Virus record (IMG/VR): IMGVR_UViG_3300046000_009133
Coordinates: 5,668-69,667 of that record
Length of the DNA: 64,000 nucleotides
From: a virus
Reading direction: 5' to 3' (one strand)
A program made the translations under genes and the position numbers. Below, in pieces: positions 23,831 to 64,000 of the stretch (the first letter of the stretch is position 1; each line of letters opens with the position of its first letter). The notes below the pieces were generated by a model. It worked only from the letters and a program-made list of their open reading frames with translations. It was not told where the DNA came from and ran no database searches.

Positions 23831-24252
23831 TTCGGGCGTGTCAGGCTTACCGCGCCTTGCATCGCCCGAACGACGATCTCCATCACCTTTTCCAGTCCAC
23901 CTTCAGCCACCAGCGTCAACCGCATGATCTTGTCCAAGGCGTCGATCTGCACACTGAAGGGCAACGTTGCCACCTTGTCTGCGGCCGACAGATTGCCCAT
24001 TGCACAGGCAATGATTGCCGATGCGAGCGGGACAAAACCCTCACCCATCTCCATGGCAATCGCAGTTGGATCGCCAAACAGCTTTCCACTGACGGCTGTG
24101 TCGTAGATGGGCGCCAGTTCGGGCAAGTAATGCCGCACAATATACATGACCTGAGCCAGTCCGAGACCGCGAACCTGATAGCGTTTGCCATCAAATTCGA
24201 CGATCTCGAACGGGATCACCAGATCAGCAATGTCATCGAATGTGTCTCCCAT
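23824..24252 (-). CDS. tail assembly chaperone (gpG-like)
   Basis: VRGLGL motif; between major tail and tape measure genes. Confidence 0.8.
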   Translation of the reverse strand: MGDTFDDIADLVIPFEIVEFDGKRYQVRGLGLAQVMYIVRHYLPELAPIYDTAVSGKLFGDPTAIAMEMGEGFVPLASAIIACAMGNLSAADKVATLPFSVQIDALDKIMRLTLVAEGGLEKVMEIVVRAMQGAVSLTRPKT

Positions 24253-24261
24253 TTCGATGCC

Positions 24262-25050
24262 TTACGCGGCAGGGAAGTTGTTGCGGTAGGCCAGCGGCAG
24301 TGAACCAAGCTTCAGCGCCGTGATGGTCAGCGGAATTTGCTGCCAGGTTGGCGAGTCAGGATCGGTCAGCATCGACAGGTCACCGTTGGGCGTGATCGTC
24401 GCACGCGGAATCCAGATTTCGGACTGCTCGCCAAAGGGGTTGTTCGAGAGGAATTTGATTTCACCTTCGACTTCTTTGTTGTCGGCCAGGATCTGCTTGT
24501 GCGTTGATGCTGCCACGTTGTAGATAACAATCAGATCTGCGTCTTCGGCGATGCCACCACCGCTCAGGACAGTTAGCATACCGGACGCCACGTCGAACGT
24601 GTAATCGGTGTTGTTGACGTGAACCGTCGCGCCGGTCGCTACCGAGGTAACGGTGACATTGCGCAGGCCGGTCGGAGCAACCAAACTGACGCCCAACTGG
24701 TACATCCGTCCCTTTACCACGTCGACCAGAGTTTCGGTTGATCCAGTCGCCGATGCCGTGGTAATCGTGGTCACGCTCGCAGACATGAACCACAGACGCA
24801 TGTTGTCTGCCTTCACGTCATCGGTCATCACCGAACCGGACAGATCGTCACCAATGATCAAACGCTTGTCACGGTTCCGATAACCTTGTTGCGAAGACCG
24901 ATGTTCCAGCGGCGTTACGTCGCGGGACAGCGTGAATTCTGGGCAGTTGCCCATTGGAAGGTAACCCTTGCCAGCGAACGTGCCAGTGACAAACGGGTTG
25001 AAAAGGATGGACCCACGCGGGACCACGAGGTTATTCGACTGATAGTCCAT
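24262..25050 (-). CDS. major tail tube protein
   Basis: N.VVPRG...GNCPEF.L...NNP.G...P.A...PNGD; AAGGAG SD. Confidence 0.85.
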   Translation of the reverse strand: MDYQSNNLVVPRGSILFNPFVTGTFAGKGYLPMGNCPEFTLSRDVTPLEHRSSQQGYRNRDKRLIIGDDLSGSVMTDDVKADNMRLWFMSASVTTITTASATGSTETLVDVVKGRMYQLGVSLVAPTGLRNVTVTSVATGATVHVNNTDYTFDVASGMLTVLSGGGIAEDADLIVIYNVAASTHKQILADNKEVEGEIKFLSNNPFGEQSEIWIPRATITPNGDLSMLTDPDSPTWQQIPLTITALKLGSLPLAYRNNFPAA

Positions 25051-34859: not shown

Positions 34860-37070
34860 CTAGCCTAGCTTCTTGGCCAGTTCTTCCATCGTGAGGCGTT
34901 TCACCTTCACCGGTTCTGTGGGCGGTGCATCCTCGTAACTCGGCAAGAACACATGATCGTTGCCGTCCCACTCGGCTGCCCAAGATGGAACATTGGTTTC
35001 TTCATCCCATCCAATCCGATGGAACTGGATATTGTCGAAGGGCGAGTCCACTTCCACCGGCCGCATCGCTAGTGCCAAGGCATAAGCGGTCAAGTCAAAG
35101 GATTCATTGCGGCGGCTGCCGATCTTCTTCCAACCTTTCGCATCTCTGATTTCGTTTGTCATCTGCTTGAAGAACCACCCAGGCATCCAATTCGGGTAGC
35201 GCAGCATCCCGCCGCCAGCATCGTCCTCCGACTTGACCCTCCTCGCCATGAACCCGGCCACGCCGTCTTTGGCAATCGTTGAGCCAACGTGAATGCGGGG
35301 AATTGCACCGCGCACCAGCGCGTGTTTCGAATTCGCACCAGCTTCCGTGATGCTGGTCTTGGCGATGGGCCAGTTCGGCGTCGGTTCACCTTTGGTGATC
35401 GCGAACTTCCGGTGGCTTCCATCGCCAAGTTCTTTTAGGCGCAACCAGAAACGATAAGCTTGCGTGGTGACGCCTTCTTGTCCGTAACCGTCAACTGAGC
35501 ACATCTTGACGCGCATCCGGCGTCCTGATCCATCAGCCAGTTCGTAGGTCCGCTTGAAGCATTGCTCGTAGAGCATGTCCCAATCTTCGGGAAAGGCTCG
35601 GGGATCGACGGGCAGGTTCTTGCCATCACCATCCAGCCGGTCTGACGAAGTGATCTTGAATCCGTCGATCACCACCATATCGCCGTTCGGCATGAAGCCG
35701 GTCGTCTGGCAGACAAAGCCATCGCCTTGCACGTCAACCGTGATCAGGATGAATCGCACGCCCTCTGGTACCGTGGGATTGTCTTTGGTCGATCCCCAAT
35801 CTTCAACCTTCTCTTTCAGGTCTTCCGGGTTCCGGTCAGACAGTCGCGCCTTAGAAATGTAATAGGAACCATTGTCGGTGGTCGTCCACTTGCGCAGCGG
35901 GCCTTCATCTCTAGTCGCCTCAAATGCGCGGCTGGCCGTGAGATATGATGCCACCAACTCGCCCCAGGTGTAGTATCCGGCGGCCGGCCCCTTGAGCCAA
36001 AAGCTTGCAATCTTGCTGCGGCGCATCTTCTGCCCAGAGATCGGCACCATCTCCCCTTTGGCGTTGATGTAGGCACCCTGCGGCACCCAGCGGCCGCGAG
36101 CGTTAAGCCCTTCCTTGGCTGCTGGCGGAATTGGTTTGCCGCAGCAAGGGCACTCCAGATAGACCGCTTCGGCAGCTTCTGTGATGTCCTCAATATCCTG
36201 CCAGCCTTTCAGCAGATCAAAGGTGCCTTCGAACCATTGGAGGCAATCATCATGGACGCACTGCCACATCCAGAGCCGCCGATCGCCGCGGTTGTAGAGT
36301 TCGAAGATTCCAGTCGAAGGTGGTGCCTCGTGTGGGTGGGTCGGGCGCCACTTCGGATCTTCCATTTCCTTGTCGGGGTTCGGGCTGCTCTCAGCAGCGC
36401 ACATGCCACGCCGCCCCTTGGTTCGCGTCCGTACTGAGCCGAGATCGTAGGGGTTGGAGGATTCAACCGCATCATCGGGAATCCGGTCATAGTCCATAAA
36501 GCCGACCTTACCCACGGTGATGGCCGAGAGGTTCGATGCGGTCGGGAAGGTCAAGTTGAAGCGCATCCCAGATTTGAATTGCTTGTCGAATGTGTTGTCG
36601 AATTGCCTCGCTGTCATCTGACGAGCGCGAACGTCAGTTGAGGCAATCAGAAAGCGATCAAATTCTCCCTTGGACCATTTTCGACCGTTCTTCATGTCAT
36701 TGTGAACAATCAGCATGTCGTCCGGGTCGTTCATTACCGTGTGGGTTGTCCAGTTCAGAAAAATCACGGACTTCCCTGTTCTCGCCGGCCCCACGAAAAT
36801 CATGCCCGTATGATCAAGGCTGGTGAGCGTGTCCTGGGGTTCGGCGATGTAGGGTGTCTTGCGCAGGGACCAATGCACTGTGCGACCGCCACCGTCACCG
36901 AGCATGGTGTATTTCATCGCGGACTCGGTGACCGTCAGCCGCTCGTTGGGCACGAAGTCGCTGGCCACTTTGGCAAGCAAGCCCTCCAGCGTGCGGAAGG
37001 GCGCGCGGTCTAACGTCTCCTGCATCGAGGGGGCTTTGGTGACCTTCTTAGATTTCTGTGTGGTCGTCAC
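34860..37070 (-). CDS. terminase large subunit (lambda gpA family)
   Basis: GPARTGKS Walker A; ESSP; YNRGDRR; TVDVQ; RNESFDL..Y. Confidence 0.95.
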   Translation of the reverse strand: MTTTQKSKKVTKAPSMQETLDRAPFRTLEGLLAKVASDFVPNERLTVTESAMKYTMLGDGGGRTVHWSLRKTPYIAEPQDTLTSLDHTGMIFVGPARTGKSVIFLNWTTHTVMNDPDDMLIVHNDMKNGRKWSKGEFDRFLIASTDVRARQMTARQFDNTFDKQFKSGMRFNLTFPTASNLSAITVGKVGFMDYDRIPDDAVESSNPYDLGSVRTRTKGRRGMCAAESSPNPDKEMEDPKWRPTHPHEAPPSTGIFELYNRGDRRLWMWQCVHDDCLQWFEGTFDLLKGWQDIEDITEAAEAVYLECPCCGKPIPPAAKEGLNARGRWVPQGAYINAKGEMVPISGQKMRRSKIASFWLKGPAAGYYTWGELVASYLTASRAFEATRDEGPLRKWTTTDNGSYYISKARLSDRNPEDLKEKVEDWGSTKDNPTVPEGVRFILITVDVQGDGFVCQTTGFMPNGDMVVIDGFKITSSDRLDGDGKNLPVDPRAFPEDWDMLYEQCFKRTYELADGSGRRMRVKMCSVDGYGQEGVTTQAYRFWLRLKELGDGSHRKFAITKGEPTPNWPIAKTSITEAGANSKHALVRGAIPRIHVGSTIAKDGVAGFMARRVKSEDDAGGGMLRYPNWMPGWFFKQMTNEIRDAKGWKKIGSRRNESFDLTAYALALAMRPVEVDSPFDNIQFHRIGWDEETNVPSWAAEWDGNDHVFLPSYEDAPPTEPVKVKRLTMEELAKKLG

Positions 37071-37561
37071 TTCAGAAGCTCCGCAAGGTTGCTACCCGAA
37101 AGCAAAACCAGCGGCGCGTCACCCTTCACATAAAGCGGGTGGCGCGGGCTTCCATGCTTAGTTTTTCCCAAACATTTCAAACGCGATCCACAAATCTCAA
37201 TCACATCAATTGCACGATAGTTCGCCATTGCGTGCGCGCCCCATGCGCCGACGAGGGGTCCGTCAATCCGTTCAACGAGGTTTTGAATGAAGTGGTCATT
37301 CTCCGGTCCAACGGGGTCTTCAGTTCCGAACAAATTTTCAGGGTTGGTGGACCTGAGAGCGAACAGATTGGCGACCATGATCGAACCGCAGTTTTCGCGC
37401 TTTGCAAATTGAATGCAGCGGCGAATTGTGGGGTCGTCGGCTTCAGCATCAGCAGTGCTTGGGTTCAACATGATGAAACCCATAGTCGGCCCGTCAGACC
37501 ATCGGCGCGTCAAGCGGTAACGATACAACCCACAGTTTGAAATGATTGCATCCGACTTCAT
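37067..37561 (-). CDS. DUF1643 family protein
   Basis: YRY.L.R.W...FIMLNPSTAD...DDPTIRRC...NLFA.R.T.P...AWG...PRHPLY. Confidence 0.92.
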   Translation of the reverse strand: MKSDAIISNCGLYRYRLTRRWSDGPTMGFIMLNPSTADAEADDPTIRRCIQFAKRENCGSIMVANLFALRSTNPENLFGTEDPVGPENDHFIQNLVERIDGPLVGAWGAHAMANYRAIDVIEICGSRLKCLGKTKHGSPRHPLYVKGDAPLVLLSGSNLAELLK

Positions 37562-38265
37562 TCCCCACCTGCCTCATCATAACCATCCAGCCGCGCGTCA
37601 GAAATTTCGTCCATGATCGTGTGACCCATCGACGCCGTGGCGAACTGCTTCGGCTTGTCAACCAAGGCGTCTTTCACGCGCACCATCAGCAGATTCACCT
37701 GATCGGTGATCCAGTTGTATTGCTCGTTTGACAGCGTGTCCTTGTCGGGCATGTCCTCGACCCAGTTCTGAGTCTCGCTCTTGATCATCATCAAAACACG
37801 GCCGAGCAGCGCCATCACATCGTCGTCGTGCCACAGTTGACCGGCTTTCTGCATCGCGCGGATGCGCCCGTTCATGGAATCCCAGAACGCCTTGGAAACC
37901 TGCGGCGGTAAGCTGGCTTGGTTCTGCTGGGCGAACCAGTCTTCGATGTCACCTTTGGGCGGCACCAGATAGGTCATGGCCGTCATCAGATCGTACATGG
38001 GATGCTGCTTGCCCTGATGCGTGGTCCAGGATGCAACGGGGCACTTCTCCAGACGCTTTTGTATCTGGCGCGGTTGTTTACCGAGCATTGACGCCAAGAA
38101 GGTCGCACCGACCGGCTGCCGGAACACGCTGTAATGCGGCATGGTCATGCTCATCGCAGCTTCTTCGGCGTCACGGGCACGCAGCGCTGCTTCTTCGCGC
38201 GTCGGGCGTCCGAGCTTCTGGCGCGGCGCGTCTTCGCCAAGCAGGTTCGACAGGTCAGTTGGCAA
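37558..38265 (-). CDS. terminase small subunit (DUF1441-like)
   Basis: LPP...KAFWD....R......G.LW; upstream of terL. TTG start at 38265 is inferred. Confidence 0.75.
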   Translation of the reverse strand: MPTDLSNLLGEDAPRQKLGRPTREEAALRARDAEEAAMSMTMPHYSVFRQPVGATFLASMLGKQPRQIQKRLEKCPVASWTTHQGKQHPMYDLMTAMTYLVPPKGDIEDWFAQQNQASLPPQVSKAFWDSMNGRIRAMQKAGQLWHDDDVMALLGRVLMMIKSETQNWVEDMPDKDTLSNEQYNWITDQVNLLMVRVKDALVDKPKQFATASMGHTIMDEISDARLDGYDEAGGE

Positions 38266-38437
38266 GGGTTTCTTCCATCCACTTGTCAACGACTTCAAGC
38301 GGCCACACCGCAACCCGGTGCGAGAGGCGCTTCGGCGCTGGAAAACGACCGTCCCTGATCCTGCGATGGATTTCCGTCTTCGACAGGGCGGTCTTCACCA
38401 CCAAGTCTTTCATCCTAAGAAACTGTCCGTCGCTCAT
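38255..38437 (-). CDS. alpA: AlpA-family regulator / recombination directionality factor
   Basis: FLRMKDLVVKTALSKTEIHRRIRDGRFPAP.RL..R.VAVW...EV..W. Confidence 0.9.
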   Translation of the reverse strand: MSDGQFLRMKDLVVKTALSKTEIHRRIRDGRFPAPKRLSHRVAVWPLEVVDKWMEETLAN

Positions 38438-38513
38438 TGATGCGCCCCCATGTGGGCCAATGAGTATCACATTTCGCGTGACATTCAACTACGAATCACG
38501 CTATGAAGATCAG

Positions 38514-39030
38514 GTGAAGTGCAGAGGGATTGAGGCGATGGGCCAAAACCTCGAACTGTAGCCAAGGAGCCAGCCATGAAGCTGTAACCCGCCTGTAGTT
38601 GAACAAACGTTGAAAATCGGCTTTGAGACTAAAACGAGGGGCGCGTCTCGGGTAACGCGCAACAAGTTACGAACCGTGGCGGACCTTATGGTTGCAGGTT
38701 CATCATGGGAATAGGCCACAGATACCCATGGCTTAAAGGCTGAAGTGACAAAACGCGGCTTGACGACGCCAGTAGCAGCCCAACCGTCTGCGTGGTCCCG
38801 GAAATACGGGACAACCGCTTTCTGGCGGTGCATCATTGGAGAAATTGGGCATAGTTTCTCTGTAATACCAATGCCAAGGTTTTGATGCACCCCCTGAGCG
38901 CGGAAAACGACACTTAGTAAGCGGGCCTGACACCACGCAGAGAAGTGAAGGGTGATCGCCGTGCTCTCCATATCCCTCCATGGGATGACTGCCCTGTCAA
39001 ACTGGCTCCTGCTTCGGCGGGAGCCTTTTT
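38514..39030 (+). ncRNA. large structured non-coding RNA candidate (~500 nt), family unassigned
   Basis: No credible ORF; many exact helices (38787-96/38932-41, 38828-35/38883-90, 38834-39/38868-73, 38704-09/38725-30, 38641-46/38655-60, 38524-30/38972-78); promoter-like GTGACA-18-TATGAA upstream; terminator at the 3' end. Confidence 0.75.
39004..39030 (+). terminator. intrinsic terminator
   Basis: GGCTCCTGC-TTCG-GCGGGAGCC-TTTTT. Confidence 0.9.
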
Positions 39031-39043
39031 ATGAGAGGGTGTT

Positions 39044-39952
39044 GTGCCGAAAAGAGTAGATTTCACGGGTCAAGTAATTGGCGAAGTTCGTGTGGTAACT
39101 TACCTTGGCGAATACAAGTACGCTTGCGTTTGCTCATGTGGGGAAACCTATACGGCCAACTATCAGCATCTCACAAAATCGTTGAATCCAAACTGCGGAT
39201 GTACCCCGCAAACACGGAAACCAAGAATAGATCTTTCTGGAAAGCGTTTCGGAAAGTTACAGGTGCTATCCTACGCGAAACGCAGCAATTGGCGGTGCCT
39301 GTGTGACTGCGGCAAAGAAACCATTGTGAACAGTCAAAACCTAAAGAAAGGCGCCACTAAGTCATGTGGCTGCGGACGCGGTTTATTTGACTTAAATGGA
39401 ATGAAATTCGGTAGATGGACGGTTTTATCAAAGGTAACCGTTGCCGAACGGAAAACTTACTATGGAAGTAAATATCTATGCCAGTGCGAATGTGGCACAA
39501 TAAGAGAAGTTTATGCAAGTGCTCTAAATAAGATCGAAGGCGCTGCCGGCAGATCAGCAAGTTGTGGCTGTCTAATGCGCGAAATAGTTACGAAAATGAG
39601 AACTACCCACGGCAAAACCAACACTTCACAATTTCAAATGTGGCAGAACGCCAAAAACAGAGCTAAAGCGAAGAAACTGCCGTTCACAATATCCGTGGAT
39701 GATATTGTTACGCCAGCGACCTGCCCCCTCCTTGGTATTCCGCTGCTCGCATCGAAAGTAAAAAAGAATCCTGGTAGCCCAAGCTTGGACCGAATCTTAC
39801 CTCATCGGGGCTATGTCAAAGGCAACATTCAAGTAATTTCAGATAAAGCAAACACGATAAAAAATAATTCATCGTTCGTGGATTTTGAAAAAATTTACCT
39901 CAATTGGAAAGCTACTATTAGCAGAACTGATCTCAGTGAACTGCTACGATAA
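39044..39952 (+). CDS. free-standing HNH-type endonuclease with three Cys-rich repeats
   Basis: 3x (G..FG.L.V...C.C.CG...SCGC); C-terminal CPLLG..SLDRI...GYVKGNIQVIS..AN..KN; AT-rich relative to flanks. Confidence 0.85.
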   Translation: MPKRVDFTGQVIGEVRVVTYLGEYKYACVCSCGETYTANYQHLTKSLNPNCGCTPQTRKPRIDLSGKRFGKLQVLSYAKRSNWRCLCDCGKETIVNSQNLKKGATKSCGCGRGLFDLNGMKFGRWTVLSKVTVAERKTYYGSKYLCQCECGTIREVYASALNKIEGAAGRSASCGCLMREIVTKMRTTHGKTNTSQFQMWQNAKNRAKAKKLPFTISVDDIVTPATCPLLGIPLLASKVKKNPGSPSLDRILPHRGYVKGNIQVISDKANTIKNNSSFVDFEKIYLNWKATISRTDLSELLR

Positions 39953-41140
39953 GAAAAGTGTCAAATCAGTTTTAGACTTTTGACCTGCAACTATGTCTAA
40001 CCTGTTTGACCACCAAGTCATAAGTGCTACTCTTTGCGGCCACCATTCGGCCGCGTTATAGGCTGACCTGACTCTATCCAAAGGAACATGGGCCAACTGG
40101 CGTTCGATCCAGTCTGACTGCCACAACCCACTTTCGTTAAGAACCGTAGAGGCTAATCCCCGAAAACCGTGAACGGTAGTTTTAGCCCCGCTGCTGTGCG
40201 GCCCGTAACCGAGGTCCGTCAAAAAATAGAGCAAGCAATTGTTCGACACCGGCTTCTTGTTGCTGACGAAACCGGGCAAGATCCACGGGCTGCCGTCTGA
40301 CAGATCGCGCAGCCGGCGCAGCAGATCCTGCGACTGCCGTGTCAGCGGAACCATGTGGGTCTTGCCCATCTTCATCCGTTCGCCGGGAATCGTCCACACG
40401 TCGCCGTCGATCTCATCCCACCGGCCAAACTGGATTTCATTCGGACGCACGAAGGTATGGACGACCAACTCCAGCGCCAGTTGGGTTCGACCTGCACCGC
40501 TGGCACGCAGGCGCCGGAAGAACTCGGGAAGTTCACTTTCGGCCAGCTTGGCGCGGTGCTTCACATCCGGCATCGGTTTCAAGGCGGGCTTGAGATCGGC
40601 AGCCGGGTTGAATTTGATCAGCCCCTCGGCAATGGCATATCGGAAGATTGTGTTGACCATCTCGCAGATGCGCTTGGCCGTGTAGATCGCTTCCCGATCC
40701 TCGATCGCCCGCAGCAGCTTCAAAATTTCAGGCGGTTCGATTTGGTCGATAGGACGTGACCCGAGAACCGGCAGAATGTCATCCTCGATCCGAGACCAGA
40801 AGCGGGCGCTGTAAGAGGTCTTCCATTTAGCCTGGTTGTCGGCGAACCAGCGACGGGCGATTTGGTCGAAGCTCTGCAATGCTGCTGCTTTCGCCCCAGG
40901 GTCTTTCCCCTCGCGTAGCATCATCTTGATGCGCTCCCGTTCAGCCCGCGCCTCGCCCAGCGATGTCGCCGGATACTTCCCCAAGGCAGCGGTGCGGCGC
41001 TTGCCGGCGTAGGTGTAGTCCATGCGCCACAGCCGACTGCCGTTGATCTGCACGAGCAGGTAGAGCCCCGCAGCGTCGGTGATCTTGTGGGGCTTGTCGG
41101 TCGGCTTGGCGGTGCGGCAGGCGGCGTCAGTTAGGGGCAT
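39944..41140 (-). CDS. int: tyrosine integrase, P4-like with N-terminal arm-binding domain
   Basis: D..GLYL.V...GSRLWR..Y...GK.....LGKYP; catalytic R (VRPNE), K, HGFR, LAH, AYN. Confidence 0.96.
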   Translation of the reverse strand: MPLTDAACRTAKPTDKPHKITDAAGLYLLVQINGSRLWRMDYTYAGKRRTAALGKYPATSLGEARAERERIKMMLREGKDPGAKAAALQSFDQIARRWFADNQAKWKTSYSARFWSRIEDDILPVLGSRPIDQIEPPEILKLLRAIEDREAIYTAKRICEMVNTIFRYAIAEGLIKFNPAADLKPALKPMPDVKHRAKLAESELPEFFRRLRASGAGRTQLALELVVHTFVRPNEIQFGRWDEIDGDVWTIPGERMKMGKTHMVPLTRQSQDLLRRLRDLSDGSPWILPGFVSNKKPVSNNCLLYFLTDLGYGPHSSGAKTTVHGFRGLASTVLNESGLWQSDWIERQLAHVPLDRVRSAYNAAEWWPQRVALMTWWSNRLDIVAGQKSKTDLTLFLS

Positions 41141-41260
41141 TTAGAACTTTCGCAGGTTCCAAATTATCTGAACACAGTTCCAGATGATACCAATGCCGAA
41201 AACGATCTGAACAAAGACACACATCATTGTGGCCATGTTGATAATTTCTACAACTTCCAT
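41141..41260 (-). CDS. 39-aa hydrophobic peptide
   Basis: MEVVEIINMATMMCVFVQIVFGIGIIWNCVQIIWNLRKF; AAAGGA SD; its TAA abuts the integrase ATG. Confidence 0.55.
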   Translation of the reverse strand: MEVVEIINMATMMCVFVQIVFGIGIIWNCVQIIWNLRKF

Positions 41261-41308
41261 CTTCCGTTTCCTTTTTGCTCGGCTTGGCAGTGCGGCAGGC
41301 GGCGTCAC

Positions 41309-41521
41309 TTAGGGGCATTGCGACTTCACCTCGGGATGATAGATGATCGTCGCGTTCATCTCGGTTGCCGTGCGAGTCAGTGCATCGAACATTGTTTCAT
41401 CGCGGTATTGAACGAAGCCGGTCAAGGGTTCCTTGCGACCATCGACATAAACCACAGTCAAGCCGTCCAAGCCGACGCTCGCCAGAGGGATGCCCGTGTG
41501 CTTAAACTCTGGAATTTCCAT
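41309..41521 (-). CDS. hypothetical protein
   Basis: 70-aa ORF between attP and integrase. Confidence 0.55.
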   Translation of the reverse strand: MEIPEFKHTGIPLASVGLDGLTVVYVDGRKEPLTGFVQYRDETMFDALTRTATEMNATIIYHPEVKSQCP

Positions 41522-41554
41522 CTTCCCATCTCCCACTACGGTATCGCCGAGCGA

Positions 41555-41773
41555 CTACCGTGAAATCTACCGTGAATTTTCTGGGACACATGGGTTCCCA
41601 CCGGCACCTATAATCTAGGCCATCCGTTGAAAAACCTCAAGAAAAATACTCATTGGCACTCACCCCTTGCCGGATTGGTGCGGATAAAAGCAACCACTTA
41701 TCATTTGAAATCAACGCGGTAGACGGGTCGATGCCGTAAATGATACCGTAAAATAGTTGGGACGCATGGGTTC
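41555..41773. other. putative attP with duplicated arm-site blocks
   Basis: Two blocks (T[A/G]CCGT[G/A]AA x2 plus TGGGAC[A/G]CATGGGTTC) repeated with identical 176-bp offset, near int. Confidence 0.7.
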
Positions 41774-41795
41774 TTATGGGCACTTATGCAGCGAA

Positions 41796-60794: not shown

Positions 60795-63383
60795 ATGGCA
60801 ACAGTTCCCACGCTCTCGGGCGTGCTTGCACACATTCGCCCGCTGGTCATTGCTGGAGCATCCTGTCACTGGTTGCACCCATTCGACTATGTTGATGAAA
60901 ACGGCTACAAGCGCGGCAAGACGCCGCGGGCATCCAAATGGTCCGAAGAACCGACGCTCGATCTTGCTGATCTGGAACGCACCTATCGTGACCGGTCAAA
61001 TATCGGCATTCGCTTGGGCGAACCGTCGCTGATTTCAGGCTTCTATCTTCATCTGATCGACCTTGATGTTCGCAAGCCAGAGCTTGAAGCCGAAGCATGG
61101 GCAGCATTGCTTGCGATCTGGCCGGAAGCCCGTAACTTTCCTCGCGTTATCAGCGGCAGCAGGGGTGCCAGCAGACACATTTACTTCCTGTCGCGGCAAC
61201 CGTTTCGCAAACTGAAACTGGCAAAATCCACGACATTTGATCTGGTTTGGGACGACATTCAAAAGCGCCATGTTTCCCGAAATGATTGGGAAATCGACCT
61301 GATGGGCACCGGTTCCCAAGCGGTTATCCCCCCATCATTGCATCCCGATACCGGACTCGCCTACGAATGGGAGCAGGCGCTTGATTTTTCGATGCTGGAT
61401 CTGGGAATTGGCCCGATTGTTGCAGTCGAATCCATTGAAGCCTGGGGCGCGCGGCTGACGCAGCCCGAATCAGATGAAGACGATCTTGAGACCCTGTTCA
61501 ATAACTCCCCGCTGAACCTCGACGATGATCAGATTGATGAAATTCTTACTTTGATCCCGAATGACGGCGAAGAATTTGACAGTGCTGGGAACCTGATTCG
61601 AACCGGCGCCCACTATGACGATTACATCGAAGTCGGCATGGCGCTGCACCACCAGTATCAAGGAACTGAAGACGGCTTCATAAAATGGGTCGATTGGGCT
61701 TCGCAAGCGTCAAAGTTCGACCTGAAACACGCCCGCTATCGCTGGGACAAGTCGTTCGGGGATGCCAAGAATCCGGTTCGCATGGCCACGTTGATCCAGA
61801 AGGCAAACACCAATCGCCTCAAGTCCGAGCACGACTTCGAAACAGAGGATTCGTTCGAAACCGGCACCGCTTTGATGATTCGACCGGTTACAGACCTGTC
61901 GGCGCTGCTGGACGGTCCGGTATCGACTACCAGTCTGAGCAATATCTTGAGCGGATCAGCCCCGGCACCACCGAAAGCCGCCGAACCGGAGCCCGATGCG
62001 AATTGGGAACGGCTGCTGGCGCGGAATGAAGAAGGGGAGTTGAAGTCGAACGCGCACAACCTCGCCCTTATCGCGGCCAATGACCTGCGGCTTGTTGGCG
62101 TTCCGGCGATCAACGAATTCACTCAGGAGATCGTGTTGCGGAAGACACCAATGCGAATTCGCAAGAAGGACCGCGCCAGTGCAAACCCGGTTCGCAATTT
62201 GGAAGGTCGCCTTTGGACATTGAGTAACCCGATCAACGGCGATTTTTGGATTGATTCCCACGACAGCGCAATCCGCATCATGTTCGAAGCACCAAGCACC
62301 CAAGGAGGGTATGGAATAAAAGTAACCGATCGAGATCTCAAAGCCGGGATAGACGCGGCAGCTCAGAAGAACGCCTTTCATCCAGTTCAGCAGAAGTTAA
62401 AATCGTTCGTCTGGGATGGCATTCCTCGGGCCGAGCAGATGTTCATCGACTTTCTGGGCTGTCCCAACACCCCCTATCACCGCGAAGCGGCCTTGATGAC
62501 ACTGGTTGGCGCCGTGGCGCGCGTCTTCGAACCGGGACACAAGTTCGACTTCGTACCAATCCTTGAAGGTATACAGGGTAAAGGCAAAACGACCTTCATC
62601 CGCACTCTTGCGATGGATTGGTACAGCGAGTTGACCGGTGACATCAGCGATGTGCAGGAAATGGTCGAACACATGCAAGGCTCGTGGATCATGGAGATCG
62701 GCGAGTTATCCTCTATGCACAAGTCCGAGGTCAACGACCTGAAGGCATTCGTCTCACGCACCGAAGACAAGACCCGTCTCGCCTATGGCAAACGCGCAAT
62801 GGTCTTCCCGCGGCAGTGCATCTTCATCGGATCGACCAACGACAACGAATACCTCCGCGACCAGACCGGTGGCCGTCGCTTCTGGCCGATCAAATGCCAT
62901 ATCGAAGGCGAGATCGACAACGAGCGGTTCCACGGTATTGTTCATCAGTATTGGGCCGAAGCATTGACCATCTACCTCGCCATGCGAGCATCAAAGCCGC
63001 ATGGCGACCTGCCCCTTTACCTCCGTGACGAGATCGCCGCCAAGGAAGCCATGCTGATGCAGGAGAGCCGCCGCGTCGAGACCTCGGAAGACGTGCTATC
63101 CGGTCTAATCGCTGCTTGGCTAGAACGTCCCGTGGATGACGAAACCGGGTTCGACGACCTCGACACCACCGCCCCGAAACAGTACCGCCAGGAAACCTGC
63201 ACCGCTGAGATATGGGAGCGGGTCATGGGCGGAAAGCAGGGTAATATTCCTCAGAATGAGTCGATCAAGATCGGTCGCGCGATGACTATTCTGGGTTGGC
63301 CAAGAACGGAGAACGGGGTTCGGGACCGCCCGTTGAACAAGATATACGGTAAAACCCGCGTCTACGTCCGACCTACGAAATAG
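60795..63383 (+). CDS. primase-polymerase / PriCT-2 / VirE(VapE)-like helicase fusion
   Basis: NIGIRLG, IDLD, H.Y, VIPPSLHPDTG..YEW; W..WA....KF; LEGIQGKGKTT; GSTN...YLRDQTGGRRFWP. Confidence 0.93.
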   Translation: MATVPTLSGVLAHIRPLVIAGASCHWLHPFDYVDENGYKRGKTPRASKWSEEPTLDLADLERTYRDRSNIGIRLGEPSLISGFYLHLIDLDVRKPELEAEAWAALLAIWPEARNFPRVISGSRGASRHIYFLSRQPFRKLKLAKSTTFDLVWDDIQKRHVSRNDWEIDLMGTGSQAVIPPSLHPDTGLAYEWEQALDFSMLDLGIGPIVAVESIEAWGARLTQPESDEDDLETLFNNSPLNLDDDQIDEILTLIPNDGEEFDSAGNLIRTGAHYDDYIEVGMALHHQYQGTEDGFIKWVDWASQASKFDLKHARYRWDKSFGDAKNPVRMATLIQKANTNRLKSEHDFETEDSFETGTALMIRPVTDLSALLDGPVSTTSLSNILSGSAPAPPKAAEPEPDANWERLLARNEEGELKSNAHNLALIAANDLRLVGVPAINEFTQEIVLRKTPMRIRKKDRASANPVRNLEGRLWTLSNPINGDFWIDSHDSAIRIMFEAPSTQGGYGIKVTDRDLKAGIDAAAQKNAFHPVQQKLKSFVWDGIPRAEQMFIDFLGCPNTPYHREAALMTLVGAVARVFEPGHKFDFVPILEGIQGKGKTTFIRTLAMDWYSELTGDISDVQEMVEHMQGSWIMEIGELSSMHKSEVNDLKAFVSRTEDKTRLAYGKRAMVFPRQCIFIGSTNDNEYLRDQTGGRRFWPIKCHIEGEIDNERFHGIVHQYWAEALTIYLAMRASKPHGDLPLYLRDEIAAKEAMLMQESRRVETSEDVLSGLIAAWLERPVDDETGFDDLDTTAPKQYRQETCTAEIWERVMGGKQGNIPQNESIKIGRAMTILGWPRTENGVRDRPLNKIYGKTRVYVRPTK

Positions 63384-63415
63384 CCTGTAATCTATCATGT
63401 ATCAGGCTGCATTTG

Positions 63416-63439
63416 ACCCGCTTCGGCGGGTTTTTTGTT
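63416..63439 (+). terminator. intrinsic terminator after primase
   Basis: GACCCGC-TTCG-GCGGGTT-TTTT. Confidence 0.85.
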
Positions 63440-63513
63440 AGGAAATCGACTGTATAGCAAGATGGATTTTACAAGAATCGCGCAGATGGTGATTTTTCTA
63501 TTTTACCCACTCT

Positions 63514-63735
63514 TGGCCACTCTGACCACTTGGCCACTCGACTCTCCTGGAGTCTCCAACGACCCCCCTCTTTCACATTACCAGTGTAAGTGCCTGTCAG
63601 GCCAATTACCCATTTAACCCTCTATATAGACTTTATAGGAAAGTAAGTGGCCAGAGTGGCCAGAGTGGTTAGTATCTGAAATATAAGCACTTTTCCGGCC
63701 ACTCCAGCTTGGCCACTACGATTGTCTAGTGGCCA
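63514..63735. repeat. about 7 (T)GGCCACT copies in both orientations around an AT-rich core; candidate replication origin
   Basis: Copies at 63514, 63531, 63646, 63655, 63697, 63710, 63728. Confidence 0.6.
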
Positions 63736-63793
63736 GTTGATTGTATGCGATGATTGATTTTACGCAGTTTCGTTGAGATGGATTTTGCAACAT

Positions 63794-63906
63794 TTCAACA
63801 ATCGTTGAACAGTCTTAGGTCTCATTTCAAGTATTGTTGAAATTAGAACCATTCTAAACTGTCGATCTCGATCAGGAAACCTGCGGACTGTTCAACGATT
63901 GTTGAA
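63794..63906. repeat. perfect 21-bp inverted repeat TTCAACAATCGTTGAACAGTC, 71-nt spacer
   Basis: 63794-63814 is the exact reverse complement of 63886-63906. Confidence 0.9.
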
Positions 63907-64000
63907 GGGTTCCGGCTAAATGCTTGATTTTGCAGGTAAACAGCCCAGTTTCACTGTGATATTTTTCAAAATAGGAATGAATCGGGTTCTTTCCTTCTCC

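Follow-up and report, generated by a model that had tools for sequence, protein, structure and literature searches.

The ORF-free gap between the integrase and terminase genes

The window analyzed here, a 64,000-nucleotide (nt) stretch covering bases 5668–69667 of a 69.7-kb linear IMG/VR virus record (IMGVR_UViG_3300046000_009133), contains a gap of 606 nt (38438–39043) without an open reading frame (ORF) between the start of an AlpA/excisionase gene and an HNH endonuclease ORF. A preliminary description had proposed most of this gap (38514–39030) as a large, ornate non-coding RNA; the present analysis suggests a small, moron-like RNA unit that may be transcribed from the + strand. In a greedy map of ORFs of at least 60 amino acids (aa), the gap is the largest of the window, all gaps of which sum to 4455 of 64,000 nt, in agreement with the earlier remark that some 520 nt lack a convincing ORF in a densely coding genome.

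In terms of gene content, Pfam and PHROG scans of the window reveal a lambda-type head module (GpA-like large terminase at 34860–37070, lambda-family portal, S49 protease, and capsid E) as well as gene transfer agent (GTA)-like tail genes, PolB, primase, ribonucleotide reductase, ThyX, and methylases. The small terminase subunit (37558–38313) is 50–51% identical to its counterparts in the RcD-cluster phages of Rhodobacter capsulatus, in which the gene order is helicase, helix-turn-helix protein, integrase, "excise," (methylase), small terminase, and large terminase. These comparisons indicate that the phage is a temperate relative of the Rhodobacter RcD-cluster siphophages. The gap occupies a variable cargo slot, flanked on one side by a tyrosine integrase (39944–41140, − strand; Pfam PF22022, PF13356, and PF00589) and on the other by the AlpA/excisionase–terminase operon. 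The first gene of this operon (38255–38437, − strand) encodes an AlpA-family excisionase/regulator (PF05930, E = 4e-10; PHROG "excisionase and transcriptional regulator"), the homologue of which in RcGingersnap carries the annotation "excise."

Predicted folding of the gap

All helices listed in the preliminary description were located in the letters of the + strand at the positions given for them. A 10-base pair (bp) helix, TCTGCGTGGT/ACCACGCAGA (P1, 38787–96/38932–41), would close a multibranch domain (38787–38941) containing the helices TCCCG/CGGGA (38796–800/38807–11), ACCGC/GCGGT (38814–18/38825–29), GTGCATCA/TGATGCAC (38828–35/38883–90), CATTGG/CCAATG (38834–39/38868–73), and GAGAAA/TTTCTC (38839–44/38855–60). 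The last two share G38839, so they cannot both be complete at once. Outside this domain are the helix CATGGG/CCCATG (38704–09/38725–30), the hairpin GCGCGT/ACGCGC (38641–46/38655–60), which is scored as terminator-like on the − strand (38660–38641), a long-range 5′–3′ helix GAGGGAT/ATCCCTC (38524–30/38972–78), and the hairpin ATCCC/GGGAT with a CCUCC-containing loop (38972–38986).

For the whole 517 nt, z is −2.85 on the + strand, where none of 100 shuffles folds as well, and −1.77 on the − strand, where 6 of 100 do. The predicted folding signal is concentrated in one over-structured domain, 38785–38943 (z = −4.94 on the + strand and −3.89 on the − strand; 0 of 300 shuffles as good on each), which ranks 7th among 2840 composition-adjusted windows of the whole 64 kb; only the far right record end and one tail-gene intergenic window rank above it. 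The 5′ 189 nt (38514–38702, z = −1.6) and the stretch 38652–38786 (z = −0.7) fold no better than their shuffles. The element thus does fold better than shuffled sequence on the + strand, with the signal coming from 38785–38943. The + strand fold contains G·U pairs in P5 and P7, the − strand equivalents of which are A·C mismatches. The third most over-structured 159-nt window lies elsewhere, at 24121–24279 on the − strand (z = −4.5), in a short gap between tail-region ORFs; repeats were looked for there and none was found.

The 3′ end of the putative RNA carries an intrinsic terminator (39004–39030, + strand), which consists of a 9-bp stem with a UUCG loop (39004–39025) followed by five T residues (−17.7 kcal/mol) and has the features of a Rho-independent terminator, namely a GC-rich hairpin followed by a U-run on the transcribed strand. 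The UUCG terminator of the preliminary description is therefore upheld, and its stem also carries one compensated change in L020, a metagenome locus with a small terminase 91% identical to that of the window: 39007 T>C is matched by 39022 A>G, converting a U-A pair to C-G, and 39005 G>A leaves a single mismatch.

The free-standing HNH endonuclease ORF (39044–39952, + strand; PHROG 374, E = 4.5e-42) starts 14 nt past the terminator T-run, is convergent with the integrase gene, and overlaps the integrase stop by 9 nt. It encodes a zinc-ribbon-repeat homing-type endonuclease, with three Cys-rich repeats and no RuvC match in the Pfam and PHROG scans, and its GC content by codon position is low (0.45/0.45/0.43). 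The ORF is absent from L020, and the sequence of a second related lineage departs from the window after 38966; it thus appears to be a recent low-GC insertion that is not present in relatives with the same RNA blocks. Since the space between T-run and ORF leaves no room for a promoter of its own, the HNH ORF would need + strand transcription from upstream.

Two near-invariant blocks in a mosaic of inserts

Loci anchored on the small terminase protein were recovered from viral contigs (12 loci, 47–57% identity) and metagenomes (5 loci, 47–91%), with none in genome contigs; a search anchored on AlpA returned no locus, and one with the HNH protein returned 1 distant locus. Among the protein-anchored loci, DNA similarity to the gap is found only in L020, and the loci at 47–57% identity show none. 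Contigs from four sequencing runs (X4, X5, X16, and X19), out of 24 rows from 16 studies, were compared in addition; three of these rows may represent the source sample. Pieces from run X4 are identical to the window and may belong to the same population, and the contigs of runs X5, X16, and X19 are ones that we infer to form a second lineage.

The similarity of L020 to the window is sharply partitioned. Identity amounts to 87% in the small terminase part (37572–38254), 93% in AlpA (38255–38437), and 71 of 72 nt in the promoter/operator block (38438–38509). The following variable part (38510–38888) is replaced in L020 by 213 unrelated nt, after which 77 of 78 nt are again identical (38889–38966) and the 3′ part (38967–39045) is 84% identical. 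In the second lineage, 22 of 269 nt differ in the AlpA part, 1 difference is listed in the promoter/operator block, a 37-nt stretch stands in place of 38520–38651 (three contigs), and only 5 of 315 nt differ over 38652–38966, where the similarity stops. One X16 contig runs unbroken over 38251–38966 apart from the 37-nt replacement, and another X5 contig keeps 38517–38663 joined directly to 38889 onward. The variable 5′ segment of the putative RNA (38514–38651, + strand; fold z = −1.6) is thus replaced in both the second lineage and L020, and the 78-nt block 38889–38966 is near invariant, with one listed difference (38962) in the second lineage.

Taken together, the region appears to be a patchwork in which two near-invariant blocks flank inserts, each of about four configurations having different ones. 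The parts conserved in the recovered close relatives are, as judged from these alignments, only 38438–38513, a three-way junction at 38815–38924, and the block 38889–38966.

Beyond these close relatives, searches for the element returned no convincing counterpart. Distant-mode BLAST of the gap against phage and plasmid collections gave no match, and neither did a 24-mer from 38773–96 in viral, genome, and metagenome collections or a 24-mer of the invariant block and a 25-mer of the operator in viral contigs. An 18-mer, which covers a site variable in relatives, had 1 match in viral contigs (L015) with no further similarity, taken as chance; the sequences scanned for these patterns may lack near relatives. 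Local alignment of the gap to 13 integrase–AlpA slots gave z ≤ 1.5 for 12 of them; the z of 3.5 for the remaining slot (L010; reached by 1 of 100 shuffles) falls short of significance when 13 slots are tested. When a covariance model of the domain was run over 20 sources, the window and L020 were the only matches, ahead of a next candidate at E = 0.11.

Rearrangements were also seen on the integrase side of the slot. The L020 integrase is internally deleted (2526–2830), with only residues 1–36 and 331–397 still matching. In the window, the ~49 nt with which the integrase gene region begins occur twice (41093–41141 and 41271–41319, 90% identical), on either side of an AT-rich insert of ~130 nt; L020 has a single copy. 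The 5′ end of the integrase gene seems to have received a small insertion accompanied by a long target duplication. A tRNA guessed in the letters after 39045 of a relative was discarded, as ARAGORN finds none in L020.

A small predicted three-way junction rather than one large ornate RNA

Covariance modeling points to a conserved three-way junction of ~110 nt (38815–38924, + strand); L020 aligns to the model of the domain at 64 bits. The junction comprises P3 (CCGCUU/AAGCGG), a P4 stem (38824–35/38883–93) with a swappable apex, and the P7 hairpin (38894–38917). P3 and P7 are unchanged in L020. The upper stem of P4 has a different sequence there, with four pairs changed on both sides and still Watson-Crick; none of six slid registers of the L020 P4 exceeds 1 double change, as compared with the 4 observed. 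Further downstream, L020 retains the stem of the 38972–38986 hairpin with an altered, shorter loop.

The second lineage provides a separate comparison. Of its four substitutions in 38652–38937, two fall in hairpin loops (38721 and 38802) and two convert G38839-C38860 into a U-A pair, so that the multibranch domain has one compensated pair and no predicted pair broken. In a simulation with four random substitutions, this combination of no broken pair and one double change arose at a frequency of ~0.0017.

The notion of one large conserved RNA of ~520 nt does not survive these comparisons: the 5′ 138 nt are replaced in relatives, the closing helix is half broken in L020, and the long-range GAGGGAT/ATCCCTC helix has lost its 5′ arm in both other lineages and its 3′ arm also in the second lineage. 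What the comparisons support instead, with evidence that is real but thin, is a conserved structure that consists of a ~110-nt three-way junction with a swappable tip, followed by an invariant tail, a 3′ hairpin, and the terminator.

The promoter/operator block

The block directly upstream of AlpA (38438–38513), conserved in L020 and the second lineage, contains the palindrome ATCAC-N7-GTGAC (38466–38482), within which lies the TCAC-N7-GTGA site (38467–81) that had been reported to overlap a promoter. The palindrome, together with TTCAA, is found ~35–45 nt upstream of AlpA in the window and seven other loci (L002, L011, L012, L013, L020, L021, and L024), which with the window represent 4 distinct sequence types. 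Read by eye on the − strand, the block offers a −35-like TTGAAW, a 16-nt spacer, and an extended −10; in the window these elements, assigned to AlpA by eye, are TTGAAT (38488–38483) and TGA-TACTCA (38469–38461). The block can accordingly be read as a putative AlpA promoter with an operator in its spacer, and an AlpA gene with its own promoter implies that the gap is not simply an AlpA leader.

On the + strand, a candidate promoter consists of GTGACA (38478–83), an 18-nt spacer, and TATGAA (38502–07), with the hexamers again assigned by eye. This arrangement is identical in L020, and GTGACW followed 17–18 nt on by a hexamer starting with TA is seen by eye in 3 of the 4 sequence types. A second exact ATCAC-N7-GTGA occurs on the − strand at 37695–37710, inside the small terminase gene, and may be a chance occurrence or a second operator.

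A putative + strand RNA unit in the cargo slot

The same slot holds cargo on the strand opposite AlpA in several relatives. In L021, a more distant relative, and with the same sequence in L013, it contains a tRNA-like gene (L021 3093–3166) that ARAGORN calls tRNA-Cys(GCA) and for which the best Rfam match is tRNA-Sec, below threshold (25 bits, E = 0.008), with a terminator-like hairpin ~150 nt downstream. In L002 (252–2045) it contains a UmuC/ImpB-like polymerase of the Y family (429 aa) together with a 107-aa ORF without a family, and in L003 and its kin a 680-aa ORF. Cargo in this orientation needs a promoter pointing away from AlpA. Together with the promoter block and the position of the HNH ORF, the opposite-strand cargo makes a + strand unit spanning ~38513–39030 the most economical reading.

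Our best reading, at about even odds, is that the gap encodes a non-coding RNA of the moron kind on the + strand, ended by a terminator and built around a conserved structured core; we infer both the transcript and its strand. Under this scheme, an autonomous "moron"-type cargo unit would encode an RNA instead of a protein in the slot of an RcD-like temperate siphophage. The + strand promoter overlapping the AlpA operator would start the RNA near 38513, directed away from AlpA, and transcription would end at the 39004–39030 terminator, giving an RNA of ~0.5 kb here and ~0.35 kb in L020; read-through of the terminator would feed the HNH endonuclease gene behind it. The RNA itself would be a patchwork, in which the 5′ part and stem tips are swapped between kin and the junction, the block to 38966, and the 3′ hairpin plus terminator are kept. 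As to function, we would guess at regulation: the RNA might be produced by the prophage or early during infection and might use the invariant block to act on the neighboring AlpA/late operon or on messages of the host. The preliminary description is thus retained as far as a likely non-coding RNA unit with a terminator and one over-structured domain is concerned, and not as regards a class of large ornate RNAs.

Several observations weigh against this interpretation. The letters of the + strand promoter proposed earlier (−35 at 38478, −10 at 38502) are present, yet a promoter scan of 38000–39500, the rule of which requires a T at position 6 of the second hexamer, called 0 sites, and by consensus the candidate appears weak. 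The high identity of the conserved blocks could come from recent recombination between phages and not from selection. All strong helices are purely Watson-Crick, such that DNA palindromes or protein sites would give the same "compensation." The covariation in L020 was reached by 30 of 500 column shuffles in an alignment of two rows that was itself fitted to the model. In L020, furthermore, P1 has 4 of its 8 modeled pairs broken, P2, P5, and P6 have no counterpart, and the fold of the entire unit does not stand out from shuffles (z = −1.09 and −1.45). The compensated changes total 1 pair in the second lineage and, in L020, 4 in P4 and 1 in the terminator, which amounts to few events in two to three lineages. 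The comparators are few and all close kin: L020 is the one full relative, and about two further lineages are represented by contig fragments. The distribution of the element is narrow, and more distant relatives show no detectable counterpart. Finally, contigs of one RNA-seq study contain the stretch, which attests to its presence only and says nothing on transcription, strand, or ends; the contig ends at 38329 and 38937 come from that single study and were not counted as transcript ends, even as a weak hint.

A more ambitious proposal, which we regard as improbable, is that the gap represents a new kind of phage regulatory RNA, in which the junction and invariant 3′ block form a scaffold, swappable tips and 5′ modules set specificity, and the whole serves as an immunity or timing determinant controlling the AlpA–terminase operon. 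Such control might operate through 38882–38894 on the AlpA ribosome-binding site or through mutual exclusion at the overlapping divergent promoters. The pairing of 38882–38894 to the AlpA Shine-Dalgarno/start region (12 of 13 nt) ranks 2nd of 70 start regions, is matched by 14 of 500 shuffles, and is lost in L020, and it is not taken as evidence. A ranking of targets by duplex energy was set aside as uninformative owing to long bulged duplexes.

Alternative functions of the gap

It is rather unlikely that the region acts as DNA with no functional RNA, the conserved blocks being protein-binding sites (operators, activator sites, or sites of the Xis/IHF type) or recombination linkers and the hairpins palindromic sites or by-products. 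This would fit 38438–38513, for which an AlpA promoter with a palindromic operator is the best explanation and which is kept in seven other loci, and it would fit the mosaic, in which sharply bounded near-identical blocks flank non-homologous inserts in about four configurations. The Watson-Crick-only helices suit both strands and duplex DNA equally well, and TTCAAC/GTTGAA half-sites occur both here and in three 16-nt palindromes at the genome end. A DNA site does not, however, readily account for a strong one-directional terminator with a compensated stem change, for a P4 upper stem that was swapped for unrelated sequence and still pairs over 4–5 positions next to a conserved base, for the energetic preference for the + over the − strand, or for an HNH ORF that requires upstream + strand transcription.

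We consider it unlikely that the − strand is the functional one, with the gap forming the 3′ trailer of the integrase message or a read-through leader and the long hairpin 38815–35/38883–903 serving as an RNase III-type or insulating structure, in sib-like retroregulation or as a block to read-through. The integrase, AlpA, and late genes all lie on the − strand with the gap between them, the 21-nt arms of the hairpin are 81% complementary, the domain remains significant on this strand (z = −3.89), and a terminator-like hairpin is present at 38660–38641. However, the latter lacks a T-run in the second lineage (by eye), the − strand fold is the weaker one, with G·U pairs turned into A·C mismatches, and AlpA has its own conserved promoter directly upstream (by eye), so that a normal AlpA message need not include the gap. 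Lambda sib, moreover, works because attP lies between int and sib; here, attP is placed on the other side of the integrase gene, unlike in the lambda arrangement.

The possibility of a decayed or unrecognized protein gene, be it the antisense ORF of 153 aa (ORF153), what is left of a lost moron, or a small protein comparable to that predicted from a 75-aa ORF in the same place in L020 (ORF75), was addressed through the coding potential of the gap and appears very improbable. ORF153 stays open for 153 codons, and the preliminary description had allowed that it might be the conserved unit. This receives no support: ORF153 has no homologue among proteins of 84–268 aa and no family in Pfam or PHROG scans, and its frame stops after 38 codons in L020, as read by eye from the L020 letters and not by a program. 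GC content by codon position is flat in all six frames of the gap, whereas the phage genes show GC3 (GC at third codon positions) of 0.58–0.74. A tblastx comparison of the gap with 19 loci returned only the identical blocks of L020, one 28-aa match (E = 0.003; L008/L023) in a frame other than that of ORF153 and in sequence that looks non-coding, and two shorter matches (E = 0.27; L002 and L016). The ATG with which ORF75 begins is conserved, and its GC pattern resembles that of coding sequence (0.59/0.51/0.68). ORF75 has no homologue and no PHROG match, however, and in the window a stop interrupts the frame 4 codons after this ATG. The 98–99% identity of the region combined with a compensated pair is also unlike decay. 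The region is non-coding.

That the gap is instead a cos (packaging) or attP (integration) site is highly improbable. Its position between the integrase and terminase genes would suit either, and for lambda-type terminases cos usually lies just upstream of the small subunit gene. In RcD phages, however, the left genome end is next to the primase gene and ~21 kb away from that of the small terminase, and the record analyzed here ends 617 nt past its own primase gene; by synteny with RcD phages, cos would be expected at the record ends and not in the gap. The RcD-cluster phages have ends with 12-base 5′ overhangs according to Table 3 of PMC8601537. At the right end of the record, where a cos-proximal region would be expected, 63380–64000 contains three copies of a 16-nt palindrome of the TTCAAC..GTTGAA type and inverted repeats of 18–26 nt and gives the strongest composition-adjusted fold signal of the window (z of about −5 on both strands).

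As for attP, a pair of 54-nt direct repeats upstream of the integrase gene (at 41558 and 41734; 72% identical, 176 nt apart, within 41537–41790) holds TACCGTRAA-type repeats and the motif GGGACRCATGGGTTC and is a candidate attP with arm-type sites. In prophage relatives, a tRNA lies just upstream of the integrase gene (tRNA-Leu 165 nt upstream in L021; a tRNA at 22–104 in L012). These repeats and tRNAs on the 5′ side of the integrase gene place the attachment site across the integrase from the gap, in which no repeat family of the attP arm type was found. The X16 contig, in addition, crosses 38251–38966 unbroken save for the 37-nt replacement.

A divergent member of GOLLD, ROOL, HEARO, the group I or II introns, tmRNA, or RNase P is scarcely credible, despite the phage context and size of the element and the HNH ORF that follows it, as in HEARO: none of 4227 Rfam models matches the whole 64-kb window at gathering scores, none of these classes is among the 6 weak matches at E ≤ 10 over 38300–39200, and the absence of the HNH ORF from L020 together with the divergence of the second lineage after 38966 indicates that RNA and HNH ORF are not a unit. 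The best of the weak matches, SorY (21.8 bits; gathering score 111) and anti-hemB (20.2 bits; gathering score 49.5), are both driven by the terminator; those on L020 (suhB/mmgR) are far below gathering scores, and ARAGORN finds no tRNA or tmRNA in the window. The suggestion of a divergent GOLLD or ROOL RNA is accordingly not supported, in view of the missing Rfam match, the small conserved core, and its restriction to close kin.

Comparison with known systems

If the unit is transcribed, it would represent a temperate phage that uses the integrase–excisionase cargo slot for an RNA in place of a protein gene, and its small junction with exchangeable modules would offer a tractable model of phage non-coding RNA evolution through module swapping. 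No new class of giant ornate RNAs emerges, and the narrow distribution limits the general impact; the unit, if transcribed, could also reveal that control by RNA extends to excision or to late genes in the RcD-like phages that infect Rhodobacter-type hosts.

In HEARO and the IscB omega-RNA, an RNA lies upstream of an ORF with an HNH domain. The predicted structured RNA described here is likewise directly upstream of an HNH endonuclease ORF; it differs in having no Rfam match, and the ORF is a PHROG 374 homing-type HNH without a RuvC match that appears to be a recent insertion. CopA, RNA I, P1/P7 c4, and P4 CI are examples of countertranscript control RNAs of plasmids and phages, which resemble the element in combining a conserved lower stem with a variable upper stem and loop, and the element, too, adjoins a promoter switch of the lysis-lysogeny type. 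Unlike in these RNAs, the sole complementarity found, in which 12 of 13 nt match the ribosome-binding region of AlpA, is marginal and has no equivalent in L020.

GOLLD and ROOL often occur in prophages near tRNAs, as stated in the literature on these RNAs (PMC5737381). The element shares with them the phage or prophage context and a length of several hundred nt, and in the relatives L021 and L013 the slot is occupied by a gene resembling a tRNA. In contrast to both, it conserves only the one ~110-nt junction, is seen in close kin only, and has no match in Rfam.

The element would behave more like non-coding RNAs of the prophage "moron" type, and like the countertranscripts above. DicF, IsrK, and the anti-sRNAs of enterohemorrhagic Escherichia coli (EHEC) prophages are examples of this type. 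Unlike typical prophage small RNAs, the element would be longer (~0.35–0.5 kb) and carry a predicted multibranch domain. As in these systems, it would form a self-contained unit within a variable cargo slot of a temperate phage genome, with a putative promoter, an intrinsic terminator, and no ORF, and with relatives only among close kin.

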